Virus record (IMG/VR): IMGVR_UViG_3300037424_001072
Span: 1 to 36,364 of that record
DNA length: 36,364 nucleotides
Reading direction: 5' to 3' (one strand)
Source: a virus
Lineage: Duplodnaviria > Caudoviricetes
Numbering within the stretch: position 1 is the first letter of the stretch; the number at the start of each line of letters is the position of its first letter. Under the pieces are notes generated by a model that searched no databases, had not been told where the DNA came from, and was given only the letters and a program-made list of their open reading frames with translations. A program made the translations under genes and the position numbers. Positions 4,929-36,364 of this stretch are shown piece after piece.

Positions 4929-7123
4929 CTCAATCCTCGCTACCCGAACCAAAGCGATTTCCCAACGTCACATGGGCGCAGAACTACGCCAAGCAATTCG
5001 GGTGGCACGTGTTTCCGCTTCACTCTATCGACTCGAAGACGGGGCACTGCACATGCAAGCGAGCCGAATGCATCGGCTCGAACAACGAGGGCAAGCATCC
5101 GCGAACTCGGAATGGCGTGCTTGACGCGACGACAGATCCGGAGATAATCGGGAAGTGGTGGTCGAAACATCCAGATTCGAACATCGGGGTTGCGTGCGGC
5201 CCGTCAAAGCTCGTAGTTATTGATATCGATCCGCGCAACGACGGAGACAATACGCTCGTTGCTCTCGAGAAAACCAACGGAAAGCTACCAAGCACGCCTT
5301 GTGCGCTTACGGGTGGAGGCGGGCAGCACTATCTATTCCGGATGCCATCCGAGTCAATGCGCGGCTCGAAGATTCCGGACGGAATTGACGTCAAGGCTGA
5401 TGGCGGGTACATCGTAGCTGCGCCATCGAACCATCTGTCAGGGCGTCGATATGAATGGGATGCCGGCGCACACCCAAAGGACGTTGCGCTTGCAGAGCTA
5501 CCGGTATGGATCATCGGGCTACTGAGAAAGAAAACCGATGCGAAGCAATCAGAGATCAAACCGGAAGACGGATACCTTGGAGCGGCATTCAAAGCAGCCG
5601 GATGGGCAGGGCAATCAATTGGGTCAGACAAGATTGCTGTCCAATGCCCATGGGAGTCGGAACATTCGTCGGGATCTCGATTCGACTCCTCTACTGTTAT
5701 CTATTCTCCGAATTCTGGATGCAATACCGGCGCCTTCTGGTGTGCACATTCGCATTGCCAAAATTCGCGGACTCTGAAAGATGTCCTTCGGAAGCTACCA
5801 GCGTCTGCTCACGCTTCCGCGCGAAAGCATCTTGGACTCCCCGAAAAACACTCACCCCCTCCGGAATCATCTCCTAGCGAAATCGATACCAATGAACCCT
5901 GGACTCAAATGCTTCGTTTCAACGGAGAAGGGCAAATGAGAAAAGATCCAGGTAACGCGGCATTGCTGCTTGCGAATTTACCCGAGTGGAAAGGCGCGAT
6001 TCGCTACGATGAATTCAGCGGAAAAACGCGATGGGCCCGCCCCGCTCCACTCATTGACGGTATGGCTCGACCAGTAGTTGGCGAAGAATTGAAAGATACT
6101 CACGTCATTTATGTTGGGCACTGGCTTTCGCGATTTTCTCGTGTGACATTCACGCGGGAGACCGTACGTGATGCGATTGAGTCGGCGGCGCTGTCGCATC
6201 GCTACAATCCGTTGCAGGAATATCTCGAGTCTCTGGCATGGGATCGGAAGCCTCGGGTAGGTGTCTGGCTCTCGACTTACCTCGGCTGCGAGGATTCGGA
6301 ATATACTCGCATCGTGGGAAGGTGGTGGCTCATCTCTGCGGTGGCGCGGGCAATGAAACCTGGATGCCAAGCGGACTGCGTGCTTGTTCTGAAGGGGCCG
6401 CAAGGAGCGCGCAAATCATCCGCGGTAATCGCCCTAGCCGGTGATCAGTGGGTACTCGAGAGTCTTCCGAAACTCAACGACAAAGACTCTGTTCAGATTC
6501 TAAGGGGAGTGTGGATCGCAGCAATGAATGAACTCGAGTCGATCCGAGGAACCGCACTGACACGAGTGAAGGACTACATTTCGACTCGAGTCGACAAGTT
6601 CCGAGCGTCGTACGGTCGATATACGATCGACGTGCCGAGAGCCTGCGTGTTTGTTGGAACCGCAAACGAGCAATACTGTCTGCCCTACGATCCAACGGGA
6701 CTGCGCCGGTGGTGGCCGGTCGACGTTGGGGCGATTGATACAGACGCGATCGAACGCGACCGTGACCAGATTTGGGCCGAGGCAATGGCGTACTATCGGG
6801 CGGGCGAGCATTGGTGGCCGGAGTCCATGGGACACCTGGATCTACTCCATGAGCAGCAGCAGAGTTCAGTCGACTCCGATCCGTGGGAGTCAGTGATCGG
6901 AGACTGGCTTGCTCATCGTGAGGAGATCCTAGAGCCAGGAGATACTCTCCACGTGACGACTACTCACGTACTACAGTCGTGCCTTGGGGTCACGCCGGAC
7001 AGAATGACCCGGGCCGACCAAACGCGCGCAGGGGGCATCCTCAGAGGACTGGGATACGAGTCCCAAAGGGTGCGGACAGGGTCCGGGAATCGGGAGTACC
7101 AGTATTCCCGGGTTTCCGGCTAG
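4925..7123 (+). CDS. Bifunctional primase/polymerase (Prim-Pol) fused to a VirE/VapE-like P-loop helicase
   Basis: GKHP..NGVLDAT, NIGVACG, LVVIDIDPRN, TGGGGQHYLF, GIDVKADGGYIVAAPSNH; C-terminal VLKGPQGARKS, FRASYGR, FVGTAN, DPTGLRRWWPV, RDQIWAEA. Confidence 0.93.
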   Translation: MTQSSLPEPKRFPNVTWAQNYAKQFGWHVFPLHSIDSKTGHCTCKRAECIGSNNEGKHPRTRNGVLDATTDPEIIGKWWSKHPDSNIGVACGPSKLVVIDIDPRNDGDNTLVALEKTNGKLPSTPCALTGGGGQHYLFRMPSESMRGSKIPDGIDVKADGGYIVAAPSNHLSGRRYEWDAGAHPKDVALAELPVWIIGLLRKKTDAKQSEIKPEDGYLGAAFKAAGWAGQSIGSDKIAVQCPWESEHSSGSRFDSSTVIYSPNSGCNTGAFWCAHSHCQNSRTLKDVLRKLPASAHASARKHLGLPEKHSPPPESSPSEIDTNEPWTQMLRFNGEGQMRKDPGNAALLLANLPEWKGAIRYDEFSGKTRWARPAPLIDGMARPVVGEELKDTHVIYVGHWLSRFSRVTFTRETVRDAIESAALSHRYNPLQEYLESLAWDRKPRVGVWLSTYLGCEDSEYTRIVGRWWLISAVARAMKPGCQADCVLVLKGPQGARKSSAVIALAGDQWVLESLPKLNDKDSVQILRGVWIAAMNELESIRGTALTRVKDYISTRVDKFRASYGRYTIDVPRACVFVGTANEQYCLPYDPTGLRRWWPVDVGAIDTDAIERDRDQIWAEAMAYYRAGEHWWPESMGHLDLLHEQQQSSVDSDPWESVIGDWLAHREEILEPGDTLHVTTTHVLQSCLGVTPDRMTRADQTRAGGILRGLGYESQRVRTGSGNREYQYSRVSG

Positions 7124-30675: not shown

Positions 30676-31122
30676 ATGGCTTTCGAACCGAGCAAATCCG
30701 CAATTCTAGCCGCTAAATCGCTTCCCGAAGCGAAATTGCTCTTGACCGCAAACGTCGATAGCGTCGACTCGGACACCTCTCTGCAATGCACGGGGTGCGA
30801 GACCTGCCAGCGTTGCAAGAACTGCAAGGACTGCGAGAATTGCGTCAATTGTCGCGACTGCGAGGGCTGCTCGAACTGCAGTGACTCGAGTTCACTCGAG
30901 AATTGCCACAACTGCAAAAAGTGCTTCGGGTCGGACGCCAGCCGCGTCAAAATGCTACGCGACTGCGAAGACTGCGTCTACGTCGAGCGGTCGATCATGG
31001 TGTTCGGGGAGCGAGGAACGCCGGACGTCCCTATTGCCAATCGATTCGGCCCATTGCAGCTGACGGCCGCAGAATTCAACTTCATTTGGGCCTTGCCACT
31101 CGAGCCAATCGTCCAACCATGA
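30676..31122 (+). CDS. Cys-rich (CxxCxx)n repeat protein
   Basis: CTGCETCQRCKNCKDCENCVNCRDCEGCSNC; GGAGG RBS. Confidence 0.8.
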   Translation: MAFEPSKSAILAAKSLPEAKLLLTANVDSVDSDTSLQCTGCETCQRCKNCKDCENCVNCRDCEGCSNCSDSSSLENCHNCKKCFGSDASRVKMLRDCEDCVYVERSIMVFGERGTPDVPIANRFGPLQLTAAEFNFIWALPLEPIVQP

Positions 31123-32594: not shown

Positions 32595-32852
32595 GTGTCG
32601 GGGCGTCGGTGTCGTCGGTGCGGGGAGTATTGGCCGCTGGACCAGTACCACAGAGATCGGACTGGCACGCTCGGCCGCAAAAGTACTTGCCGATTTTGCC
32701 GGCATAAGCCGGGTCTTTCGCGCGAAGATAGGGCATTTACGCCGGAAACCGCTAGGGCCGCTTCGCTTTTGCGAAAAACTGTGGGGAATCGACACACCCA
32801 GCCGGGGCGCGGGTATCAGAGGCGCAAATTGTCACTCCCGAGACCCAGGTGA
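32595..32852 (+). CDS. Small basic Zn-finger protein
   Basis: CRRC...CRFC with spacing like the N-terminal Zn domain of phage HNH/endonuclease VII proteins; no nuclease domain follows; GGAG upstream. Confidence 0.55.
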   Translation: MSGRRCRRCGEYWPLDQYHRDRTGTLGRKSTCRFCRHKPGLSREDRAFTPETARAASLLRKTVGNRHTQPGRGYQRRKLSLPRPR

Positions 32853-32951
32853 CAATTTTGGTCACCATGGTTTTTTGCGGGCTTTTGCAGTCGATGACAA
32901 TTTTGGTCACTTTGCGGTGACGCCGATTGTCACTGTATCAATTCGGATACA
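32826..32951. promoter_or_regulatory. Array of GTGAC-N7-GTCAC palindromes plus TGTATC-N6-GATACA
   Basis: Sites at 32849-32865, 32894-32910 (ATGAC variant) and 32917-32933; half site at 32831-32835; second palindrome at 32934-32951. Confidence 0.75.
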
Positions 32952-32996
32952 CCCGTAAACTCCGCAAATCCACAATATCACTACCAACGCAGGGGT

Positions 32997-33012
32997 TGGC
33001 ACGACCCCTGCA
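32997..33012 (+). promoter_or_regulatory. Sigma54 (RpoN)-type -24/-12 promoter
   Basis: TGGCACG-ACCC-CTGCA, one mismatch to TGGCACG-N4-TTGCW with exact GG/GC spacing; lies in the late/early intergenic region facing the early genes. Confidence 0.7.
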
Positions 33013-33176
33013 TTGGTAGGGATTATCTCGCAAGAGAGTCGAGACGGAGCAGAGGGACGCACTCAGCCTGACAGGTCGGAAAGACGACCCACCCTCGGAC
33101 GCTCGGAAGGTAGAGAGAGCGTCACCCGGAGCTCAACAGGACGATGAGCACAATTTTTAGACCGAGGAGCACGACA

Positions 33177-33409: not shown

Positions 33410-33460
33410 GCCCGAACCCATTCAGTTGGGGCGGGCTTGAGGGGCAGGAGCACGACGATG
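33410..33460 (+). repeat. Early-gene leader repeat, copy 1 (hairpin + RBS + ATG)
   Basis: 46/51 identical to 34278-34328 by manual alignment. Confidence 0.9.
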
Positions 33461-33902: not shown

Positions 33903-34256
33903 ATGACCATTAGTTTTTACGAGAACGGCTCAGATGTAGTGGCGGTCGAAACCGGCATGCCCGAACACCAAATTCGCGTGGGCGTAGGCAGCACCCATGC
34001 AGAGGCGTATCTGGCACGCATGCTCGAGGAGTCTGTGGGTGAGACCAGTGACGATGGACCATACTGCCTGTACTGGGATACCGTCTCCGACGACGAGTCG
34101 GGACCCAGCGAGCGCTACGCGACTCTCGGTCAGGCCCAGGCGCGTGCTCAGATCGCGAACCGCGATCTCCACCAGCATAACCCTGGTGACTTGCTGTGCG
34201 GGTACTCGGTGCGCCATATCGTCGATGACGAGTGGGTGCCGGTAGAGCCCGAGTAG
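33903..34256 (+). CDS. Early acidic hypothetical protein
   Basis: GAGGAG RBS before ATG 33903. Confidence 0.7.
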   Translation: MTISFYENGSDVVAVETGMPEHQIRVGVGSTHAEAYLARMLEESVGETSDDGPYCLYWDTVSDDESGPSERYATLGQAQARAQIANRDLHQHNPGDLLCGYSVRHIVDDEWVPVEPE

Positions 34257-34277
34257 CCACACCCCCCCTCAAAGTCC

Positions 34278-34328
34278 GCCCGAACCCATCAAGTTGGGGC
34301 GGGCTTTCGGGGCAGGAGCAAGACGATG
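34278..34328 (+). repeat. Early-gene leader repeat, copy 2
   Basis: GCCCGAACCCATCAAGTTGGGGCGGGCTTTCGGGGCAGGAGCAAGACGATG. Confidence 0.9.
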
Positions 34329-35342
34329 ACGAAAAATAGCACATCGGAGGACGCCGTGACCGAAAAGCGTATTTGGGTACTAGGCTCCGCCGACCCAGAA
34401 ATGTCGGCCATAGAAGGTCTGCTCAACGAATGCGGCGAGCAGGTTATTTACGCGACCTCCGGGGGACACCGCGTGAATCCGGGGAATGCATATCGCACGG
34501 ACACACCGCGTCACGAGCTGATTTGGCACAATGGCATCGGGACCATTTACGCCGTCGAATGTGATTGGGAGCATTTGGACGGAGAGACTGGGGACGTCCA
34601 ACACATTGACCACCACCGCCCTGGAGATCCGGGTTACGGCGTGCCGCCAGCGGAGTTCTTTCGCGGGTCGAGCCTCGGGCAGGTGATCGCGGAGTTGGCA
34701 CGACTCGGTGTGCTCACGTGGCCAGTTGGGCCGCTCATGAGCCGCAATCCAGCGGGCACGCTGGTGGTTGCGCATCACCAAGGCAACATGGTTGATCCGC
34801 TCATTCTCGCGGCTGCAGCCGACCATTGTCTTGGCGCTGCCTACGCAGGGCAGTGCCCGGGCGTCGACGTTGGGGCACTGGGCGAGTGGCGCATCGCTAC
34901 TCGTGCCGCGCATCAAGGGCGGTCCGTAGACGAGGTTCGCGCTGACATTGAGAGGGCCATGGCCGCGTTACGTGCAGCGCCTATGGTCACGCTCCTGGAT
35001 GTAGCGGATATGTCACACACATATGACCACGACTGGTCACGATCGGTGTGTGACGGCTGCAATCGAGAGCCTGTCATCTGCCGCGACATGCGCAATATTC
35101 ACGTGTCTGAGCTACCAGAGGCAGGCACAAGGCTTGGCGAATCGTATATCGCCGTCGGGCTCCCGGGCCCAGACGGTAGAAGCAAGGTCGTGTGCAGCGG
35201 AACAAGCGAAGTTGTTGGGGCATTTCTCAGAAATTGGGCCGAACGCAACGGGCTCGACGATTGTTATGGCGACCCGGCGCGAGGGTTCGCCGGAGGTTAC
35301 TACGCCAAAGGGTCGGAGATGACGCCGGAGCAACAACCATGA
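34326..35342 (+). CDS. DHH-superfamily phosphoesterase-like protein (NrN-like)
   Basis: WVLGSADPEM, YAVECD, HIDHH, SSLGQV, AAADH, C-terminal GFAGGY. Confidence 0.6.
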   Translation: MTKNSTSEDAVTEKRIWVLGSADPEMSAIEGLLNECGEQVIYATSGGHRVNPGNAYRTDTPRHELIWHNGIGTIYAVECDWEHLDGETGDVQHIDHHRPGDPGYGVPPAEFFRGSSLGQVIAELARLGVLTWPVGPLMSRNPAGTLVVAHHQGNMVDPLILAAAADHCLGAAYAGQCPGVDVGALGEWRIATRAAHQGRSVDEVRADIERAMAALRAAPMVTLLDVADMSHTYDHDWSRSVCDGCNREPVICRDMRNIHVSELPEAGTRLGESYIAVGLPGPDGRSKVVCSGTSEVVGAFLRNWAERNGLDDCYGDPARGFAGGYYAKGSEMTPEQQP

Positions 35343-35787: not shown

Positions 35788-35842
35788 CTGCCCCGCCGCC
35801 CAGGTTCGTCCCGGCGGCTTTCGGGGCAGGAGCAACGACATG
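35788..35842 (+). repeat. Early-gene leader repeat, copy 3 (divergent hairpin, conserved 3' half)
   Basis: GCCGCC...GGCGGC stem then GGCTTTCGGGGCAGGAGCAACGACATG. Confidence 0.8.
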
Positions 35843-36064: not shown

Positions 36065-36364
36065 CCCAAATCACTCGGTGGGATACTGGAGTCGTGATCC
36101 ATGAAGGCGAAAGCACGATCGCGGAATTGGTTGCGGCATGCGGCAAGCTGGGGATCTCGGCGTTTCGCGCCAACCTCAGCGACGCCGACCTCAGAGGCGC
36201 CAACCTCAGAGGCGCCAACCTCAGCGACGCCAACCTCAGAGGCGCCGACCTCAGAGGCGCCGACCTCAGCGACGCCGACCTCAGAGGCGCCAACCTCAGA
36301 GGCGCCGACCTCAGAGGCGCCGACCTCAGCGACGCCGACCTCAGAGGCGCCAACCTCAGAGGCG
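36061..36364 (+). CDS. Pentapeptide-repeat protein, 3'-truncated (absent from the ORF track)
   Basis: GAGGT RBS, GTG 36061; [17 protein letters not shown]...[21 protein letters not shown]... Confidence 0.9.
36169..36364 (+). repeat. Coding tandem repeat, 15-nt unit GCC(A/G)ACCTCAG(AGG/CGA)C
   Basis: Directly visible; encodes A(N/D)L(RG/SD). Confidence 0.95.

Follow-up and report, generated by a model that had tools for sequence, protein, structure and literature searches.

A phage gene for a predicted DHH/DHHA1 phosphodiesterase from a sister family of the CRISPR-associated nuclease NrN

The phage record and its accessory block

The window, the whole stretch of 36,364 nucleotides that was analysed, is a tailed-phage record with helicase, terminase, head protein, primase and endolysin genes and an estimated completeness of 43%. 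Searches with its terminase and head protein found no related cultured phage, and an Rfam scan of the window gave no match. Both contig ends are tandem repeats, built from a 12-nt unit at positions 1-660 and a 15-nt pentapeptide unit at 36138-36364, and so the record is probably broken at these repeats. An ORF of 148 aa that contains a string of CxxC repeats (30676-31122) lies just 5' of the endolysin gene and matches phrog_15341, to which no function is assigned. At 32823-32934 and 32977-33023, where the lysis genes give way to the accessory block, a short motif occurs four times in direct and inverted orientation together with a 20-bp hairpin; the set includes two identical 16-mers 45 nt apart and is a possible operator or origin.

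Downstream of the lysis genes is a block of small ORFs, apart from the replication genes of the window, and within it lies a gene (34326..35342, + strand) whose 338-aa product, P0001, is assigned by ORF, profile and fold searches to a DHH/DHHA1-fold phosphodiesterase family that is a sister of NrN. The gene starts with ATG, with AGGAG 7 nt upstream. Compared with a related sediment contig, 28 of the 40 differences listed (107 in total) fall at third codon positions (p 2e-6), an excess which suggests that purifying selection acts on it.

A GC-rich hairpin followed by a ribosome-binding site forms the leader of the gene (34262..34325, + strand; z -3.25 for the hairpin). The same hairpin-RBS arrangement occurs at only two other places in the window, both on the + strand: before a 63-aa ORF at 33458 (33410..33460) and, in diverged form, before a 74-aa ORF at 35840 (35790..35842). 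The initial annotation had described a strong early leader. The hairpin and ribosome-binding site are real, but a search for a sigma-70 promoter at the gene and its leader gave none, and early timing is suggested by gene order only. No copy of the leader motif turned up in other viral contigs, and ahead of other family genes it gave two further hits of 94, neither convincing.

In related contigs the leader is joined to other genes. Upstream of the P0001 gene is an acidic ORF (33903..34256, + strand), the last ~80 aa of which are homologous to the end of a very acidic 186-aa tail (26% D+E). Two close relatives, P0363 and L102 (positions 1-1383), carry this tail as a C-terminal fusion on the DHH protein, with two different junctions. 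In L102, the DHH gene fused in frame to the acidic domain is followed by the leader and then by the counterpart of the gene at 35840. A 536-aa fusion is present in P0001's own cluster; longer fused forms (710-2025 aa) were sought and none was found, and an Atlas search with the acidic tail returned nothing usable. The cassette is shuffled at the repeated hairpin-RBS leader.

Catalytic motifs and fold

All of the motifs quoted in the initial annotation are present in P0001, and in the order given. Motif I, L19-G-x-x-D23-P-E25 (34380..34400, + strand), aligns D23 and E25 with D19 and E21 of NrN, the latter being the residue mutated (E21A) in PDB 9LQA/9LQB, of which 9LQA shows SAM-AMP trapped on the mutant. 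Motif II (E78-C79; 34557..34562, + strand) pairs its glutamate with that of the NrN 'GVEL' motif, while the cysteine is specific to the family. D95-H96-H97 (34608..34616, + strand) aligns with D85/H86/H87 of NrN and is followed by a family-specific GDPG loop. Motif IV runs from AAAD166-H167-C168 through C177 (34812..34856, + strand); D166 aligns with NrN D119, whereas H167, C168 and C177 belong to the sister family and not to NrN. The linker helix, R189-x3-R193-x3-Q197 (34890..34916, + strand), aligns with the R..DR..QG motif of NrN without its aspartate, and a C-terminal YGDPARGFAGGY motif (35265..35300, + strand) lies in the DHHA1-like domain.

Among 118 homologues E78, H96, H97, D166, H167, C168, C177, R189 and R256 are invariant, as are Y314, G315, R319 and G320, and conservation is 90% or higher at D23, E25 and D95. 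The predicted metal ligands (D23/E25/E78/D95-H96-H97/D166) are all intact in P0001. Three cysteines near the catalytic motifs are specific to the sister family, and Y56, Q119, R189, R193 and Q197 align with conserved residues of NrN.

As a single sequence, P0001 found no match in Pfam, PADLOC, PHROGs, NCBIfam or PDB, and tblastn against 50,697 phage records was also negative. Atlas gave unnamed clusters only, with DHHA1 and MYG1 as weak leads below 0.9. The family is nevertheless large: of 7,997 candidates that were scored, 927 are homologues, and the family profile matches 1,630 clusters defined at 50% identity. When a profile of 32 diverse members was searched against the PDB, three of 177,635 sequences fell below E 0.01 and NrN was the only significant match (best E 1.4e-4), the alignment pairing D23, E25, E78, D95-H96-H97 and D166 with NrN D19, E21, the motif-II glutamate, D85-H86-H87 and D119. 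By hhalign, the DHH domain together with the linker matches a profile of 100 NrN homologues at 98.4% (E 8e-15). Searching 401 genomes of one phylum with the family profile returned the seed genome and two further genes, both of them NrN genes in cmr loci, one adjoining a CorA-like gene and the other fused to one. The PADLOC models DHH_CorA and C3a116 match short members of the sister family weakly.

Structural modelling leads to the same relative. AlphaFold2 models of P0001 (pLDDT 87) and of an insert-free member from Variovorax (pLDDT 97) both match DHH/DHHA1 proteins over their full length, with a DHH catalytic domain and a DHHA1-like C-terminal domain. Foldseek with the P0001 model places NrN (9LQA) at the top (E 3.7e-5); in the wide VIA fold search NrN (Z 11.6, rmsd 4.3, 230 residues aligned) is tied with the next DHH protein at 10.7. 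With the insert-free model NrN is clearly first (E 2e-8, TM 0.58; Z 12.9 against 8.6 for the next). The structural neighbours that follow NrN are nano-RNases and pApA/pGpG phosphodiesterases, namely TM1595, DhhP, Rv2837c, GdpP and PggH, with GdpP-like enzymes scoring far below NrN. Sequence and model together predict that P0001 is a metal-dependent DHH/DHHA1 phosphodiesterase, with NrN as the nearest protein of solved structure. From the initial annotation's reading the DHH/DHHA1 fold and the intact catalytic residues are upheld, and NrN proved to be the characterised protein most closely related to P0001 when tested five ways; the Foldseek-type comparison that the annotation proposed finds a DHH fold with NrN ranked first, and the likeness of motifs that it named is confirmed by the profile and hhalign alignments.

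A sister family distinct from NrN

Although the catalytic core is common to both groups, P0001 is not an NrN. In 242 family members and 120 NrN sequences the motifs G..D.E (228 and 119, respectively) and DHH (240 and 119) are shared. Others are divided almost cleanly. AxDHC occurs in 238 family members, DHH..GD.G in 230 and G...RG[FY] in 231, and none of the three is found in NrN; a VEC-type motif II is present in 233 of the 242. Conversely, GIEL (1 family member against 111 NrN), AAND (1 against 107), R..DR..QG (0 against 119), Y.GGG (0 against 103) and, less sharply, FSP..D (19 against 101) mark NrN. The C-terminal domains of the two groups have no profile similarity (probability 0.2%).

A tree built with IQ-TREE from 88 rows separates 12 NrN from 76 family rows by a branch with support of 100 and a length of ~3.9 changes per column; it is a quick tree with no outgroup, from which partial, split and duplicate loci were left out, and the direction of origin cannot be read from it. 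Taking NrN as the reference, members from Patescibacteria are nearest, followed by a proteobacterial and plasmid group and then by a phage-dominated group that includes P0001. The idea that P0001 is a recently captured CRISPR nrn gene is rejected on this split. A scan of IMG/VR with two patterns for true NrN found none, which is weak evidence.

On account of its own motifs, its non-aligning C-terminal domain and the lack of CorA or Cmr neighbours in the loci described below, P0001 belongs to a sister family of NrN and not to NrN proper. Membership of NrN, as the initial annotation would have had it, is not borne out, since the NrN-specific motifs are absent and P0001 falls in a separate group on a long branch.

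Two exchangeable inserts

The sister family tolerates inserts at two positions, residues 127-159 and 218-254. Insert 1 (residues 127-159; 34704..34802, + strand) is variable and is swapped between near-identical genes. Its long form is found in 29 of 36 viral loci, 7 of 32 genome loci and none of four plasmid loci, counting those in which both anchors are present. Insert 2 (34980..35084, + strand) is likewise variable, exchangeable and dispensable. In P0001 it carries the pattern H231-x3-H235-x6-C242-x2-C245, which is larger than the segment quoted in the initial annotation and is modelled with a pLDDT of 88-91. Among 242 homologues, 39 have an insert 2 of this HHCC type, 74 another Cys/His-rich form and 49 a Cys-poor form, and in 80 the insert is absent. 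From its sequence and model, the HHCC insert is likely to be a zinc site, and to that extent the metal site suggested earlier is probable; a catalytic role for the insert is ruled out, because 80 of the 242 homologues do without it.

The two inserts assort independently on near-identical cores, to judge from the sequences compared, a pattern to which assembly chimeras could add. Only one of 11 pairs with at least 90% core identity has insert 1 in common, a count biased by the clustering of the database at 90%. P0049 and P0109 share insert 1 and differ in insert 2, P0042, P0107 and P0109 share insert 2 and have three different inserts 1, and P0001 itself has the insert 1 of P0004 and the insert 2 of P0002.

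The P0001 allele is shorter by 78 nt (26 codons) at ~34799-34804, in frame and within insert 1, leaving the core helix intact. The missing codons are kept in a 99% identical soil contig, in P0363 and in L102. An assembly artefact is rejected as the source of the shortening, as the junction is covered, with no mismatch, by a contig of its own of 58 nt. In the best-matching run the junction contig has a depth of 5.4 between flanks of depth 11.3, and for this reason the short and long alleles probably coexist.

Distribution and gene neighbourhood

Relatives were gathered from 50 viral loci, 41 genome loci and 13 large plasmids, four of which were read. The carriers are phages, megaplasmids and some chromosomes, including those of Patescibacteria, and the distribution of the family is patchy. 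In 400 more genomes of the Patescibacteria group the family profile gave a single new match that scored strongly, and in 400 genomes of another phylum it gave no match of family strength.

A link to type III-CorA loci, drawn in the initial annotation, is not borne out. Searches by tblastn (E 0.01) for CorA, Cmr2, Cmr4, Cmr6 and Cas1 found none in 96 loci and the window, while the positive controls were found. Among the carrier genomes, which are incomplete, Cmr2 is present in 4 of 41, and none of the four has a match to NrN. With the sister-family gene itself set aside, one of 251 Myxococcota-group genomes has an NrN match.

One locus out of 101 unites the two families. In a member of the Patescibacteria (L081, 8938-10840) an NrN-type gene (E 2e-45) lies directly 5' of the sister-family gene, and neither CorA nor Cmr was found within this tandem locus. 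Both kinds of gene are rare there: among 401 Patescibacteria-group genomes the NrN profile and the family profile each match in four, partly as cross-matches. The tandem arrangement fits two different substrates for the two enzymes. Three other genomes of this group also match NrN-type genes.

Of the 41 genome loci, 39 yielded 126 neighbours to which Pfam was applied; some settings are prophage-like, and about 20 are housekeeping, to judge by the labels. A proteobacterial group of 11 members adjoins aminotransferase, hemerythrin and MFS genes, while the members from Patescibacteria adjoin ClpP, IF2, trigger factor and TrmB. A chromosomal group from Rhodanobacteraceae and Burkholderiaceae (L057-L059, L062, L064-L066, L069, L075 and L082) has class I/II aminotransferase, hemerythrin and MFS neighbours at changing sites. 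On the viral side, Pfam was applied to 148 of the 156 listed neighbours, which are mostly unassigned ORFs, together with methylases, helicases and pentapeptide repeats; no known anti-defence label was found among the 148, the majority of which match no family. Two rounds of neighbour clustering revealed no conserved partner gene, the best cluster covering five loci. Pentapeptide genes adjoin the sister-family gene in L012, L033 and L078.

Further features were noted around individual members. Of 91 loci, 5 have CRISPR arrays with repeats of ~36 nt no more than a few kb from the family gene, as do none of 74 control viral loci; the count is post hoc, with a one-sided p of 0.049, or 0.16 for the viral loci only (2 of 50). 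The arrays are at L020:7620-9800, L031:6496-8450, L070:6133-7300, L051:8990-9162 and L053:29-285 and 1816-1993. That of L020 is accompanied by a 573-aa Cas12u1-like effector (E 1e-88) and that of L031 adjoins a 447-aa Cas12f/TnpB-like effector; no cas1 or cmr gene was found at these two arrays, and the array stretches have no match to the window or the other loci. In L020, a phage locus, two ribozymes, one a type II hammerhead and the other a twister-P5, lie just 5' of the sister-family gene (5470-5685). In L037 (5479-5889) a partial second copy of the N-terminal part of the family precedes the full gene, and P0048 appears to have an internal duplication or an extra N-terminal segment before the full motif set.

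Relation to known systems

The closest known system is NrN of the Bacteroides fragilis type III-B Cmr/CorA locus (PDB 9LQ9, 9LQA, 9LQB and 9LQC; PMC10600005; PADLOC DHH_CorA PDLC01149). The two proteins share a compact DHH/DHHA1 fold, insert-free members of the family being ~250 aa, and the same order of motifs: D-x-E in motif I, a glutamate in motif II, DHH, S..Q, AAxD and the R...R...Q linker helix. Unlike NrN, the family has the motifs VEC, DHH..GD.G, AxDHC, CPG and YGD..RGF.GGY, is located away from corA and cmr on phages, megaplasmids and scattered chromosomes, and carries the two variable inserts.

NrnA, TM1595, DhhP, Rv2837c, GdpP and PggH have the same two-domain DHH/DHHA1 fold as P0001. 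The canonical motif I of DHH enzymes is D-x-D, as in the NrnA-type proteins, whereas P0001 has D-x-E; moreover, NrnA-type enzymes have no significant sequence match to the family, which is shorter, patchy and mobile. A phage SAM-AMP lyase resembles P0001 in being a phage-borne enzyme related to the signal eraser of a CorA locus, but it has an unrelated PII-like fold and lyase chemistry, and its activity on SAM-AMP is documented in vitro while P0001 is known from sequence. With viral signal-degrading anti-defence enzymes (ring nucleases, Acb1 and AcrIIIB4) P0001 shares its place in a phage accessory region, here a block of small ORFs with repeated leaders and an order that is shuffled in relatives.

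Phage DHH enzymes directed against nucleotide signals have been proposed in jumbo phages (PMC7824862), a general statement that is the nearest to the present case in the literature searched. The jumbo-phage proteins themselves (BFVD) are weak fold matches to P0001, with a best E of 1e-4 and 11-13% identity. The leader has a parallel in the PeSL cassettes of T4-type phages, where a repeated stem-loop and ribosome-binding site precede accessory genes and shuffling takes place at the repeats (PMC2839356); no sigma-70 promoter was found in the window's leader, and the resemblance is one of organisation only. No description of phage NrN homologues was found in the literature searched, the supplements and the structure paper for 9LQ9-9LQC, which could mention the family, lying outside it; PMC11974786 uses the letters in an unrelated sense only.

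Proposed function and alternatives

Hydrolysis of a single phosphodiester with the aid of two metal ions is the established chemistry of DHH enzymes. P0001 has the fold, the homology to NrN and the conserved residues D23, E25, E78, D95, H96, H97 and D166. By analogy with that chemistry and with the NrN mutants, these ligands would bind two divalent ions and activate a water molecule for attack on one phosphodiester, with the C-terminal domain closing over the nucleotide. Divergence around the metals (C79, the GDPG loop, H167-C168 and C177) and throughout the C-terminal domain would make the pocket unlike that of NrN, and the substrate probably differs as well. NrN cuts SAM-AMP but not cA2, cA3, cA4, cA6 or pApA (PMC10600005), which favours a small AMP-linked conjugate over a cyclic oligonucleotide. 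The position in an accessory cassette, the spread through phages, plasmids and Patescibacteria, and the phage-enriched exchangeable inserts suggest that the enzyme may act in conflict, helping the phage against a nucleotide-based response of the host; a counter-defence role is plausible from such sequence-level evidence. The reading tentatively preferred here, with a probability approaching but not reaching even, is that P0001, an accessory enzyme of the phage, serves in phage-host conflict as a phosphodiesterase for some small AMP-linked nucleotide distinct from SAM-AMP. A purely counter-defensive role leaves the chromosomal members among housekeeping genes unexplained.

These same chromosomal members favour a clean-up or salvage enzyme, an NrnA-like protein cutting linear RNA or DNA dinucleotides, pAp or similar end products of infection with no immune target. 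The nano-RNases and pApA/pGpG phosphodiesterases are next after NrN by structure, some plasmid and phage members adjoin genes for dUTPase, uracil-DNA glycosylase, an exonuclease or a 5'-nucleotidase, and DNA dinucleases with a different fold are linked to mobile elements (PMC13464484). Nevertheless, pApA is not cut by NrN, the closest relative (PMC10600005), the family is patchy, and P0001 sits in an accessory block and not with replication genes; salvage, though the main rival, is rather unlikely. It is also conceivable that the AMP or nucleotide is removed from a macromolecular or metabolite adduct, covering adenylated DNA, RNA or protein and ADP-ribose-type products, possibly under redox or metal control through the conserved cysteines. 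SAM-AMP is itself a nucleotide-metabolite conjugate, the three family-specific cysteines are close to the catalytic motifs, five proteobacterial members adjoin hemerythrin genes and one plasmid member is in a stress cluster. Against this, no ligase, adenylyltransferase or repair partner recurs among the neighbours and the hemerythrin cases come from related genomes, and adduct removal is judged improbable.

Two further alternatives retain a recognised immune signal. The main idea of the initial annotation, that the protein is a SAM-AMP phosphodiesterase and hence an anti-CRISPR against type III-CorA systems, draws on NrN as nearest characterised relative, on the alignment of the catalytic residues together with Y56, Q119, R189, R193 and Q197, and on the precedent set by a SAM-AMP lyase from a phage (PMC12255297). 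It is hard to square with the missing NrN-specific motifs, C-terminal domains without profile similarity (0.2%), the absence of CorA and Cmr from the 96 loci and the finding of Cmr2 in 4 of 41 carriers, none with NrN. CorA is present in 53 of 1,113 type III loci (PMC11229360), and rare CorA/NrN systems are a small target for a family of ~1,600 clusters. SAM-AMP is disfavoured as a general substrate by the altered pocket, by how large the family is, by the missing connection to CorA and by the locus where an NrN-type gene stands in tandem, and this explanation is improbable. The degradation of cyclic oligonucleotide signals (CBASS, cOA, c-di-AMP/GMP) in the manner of Acb1 or viral ring nucleases is the least probable of all; in its favour are the cleavage of cyclic dinucleotides by some DHH/DHHA1 enzymes, the proposal that jumbo-phage DHH proteins counter cyclic nucleotide signals (PMC7824862) and two viral loci that adjoin a cyclic-phosphate-processing receiver domain. 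GdpP-like enzymes rank far below NrN in fold searches, and the extension to CBASS made earlier finds no support in homology, NrN itself having left cA2, cA3, cA4 and cA6, as well as pApA, uncut (PMC10600005).

In a CorA system reconstituted in E. coli, immunity requires the degradation of SAM-AMP, and the phage SAM-AMP lyase was scored there by its ability to replace the host enzyme (PMC12255297). Rescue of phage or plasmid from a type III-CorA system, put forward in the initial annotation as a check, would mislead for that reason.

Implications for nucleotide signalling

A bolder extension of the preferred reading, that of an accessory phosphodiesterase acting on a small AMP-linked nucleotide, is speculative and, on balance, unlikely. 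The family would then be a widespread eraser, borne by parasites in the form of phages, megaplasmids and Patescibacteria, of a new SAM-AMP-like messenger, 'AMP-X', with NrN as its CRISPR-linked sibling and the inserts as modules of an arms race.

SAM-AMP itself came to light through the question of which molecule NrN degrades. With ~1,600 clusters that keep the catalytic core and probably have a different pocket, the sister family offers a handle on further nucleotide signals or their viral erasers. It is found mainly on phages and plasmids, and Pfam, PHROGs and NCBIfam all miss it; members that lack the inserts occur on plasmids of cultured Variovorax and Pseudomonas, which makes the family easy to test. 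If the AMP-X reading is true, the substrate would reveal a new bacterial second messenger together with the defence system that makes it.
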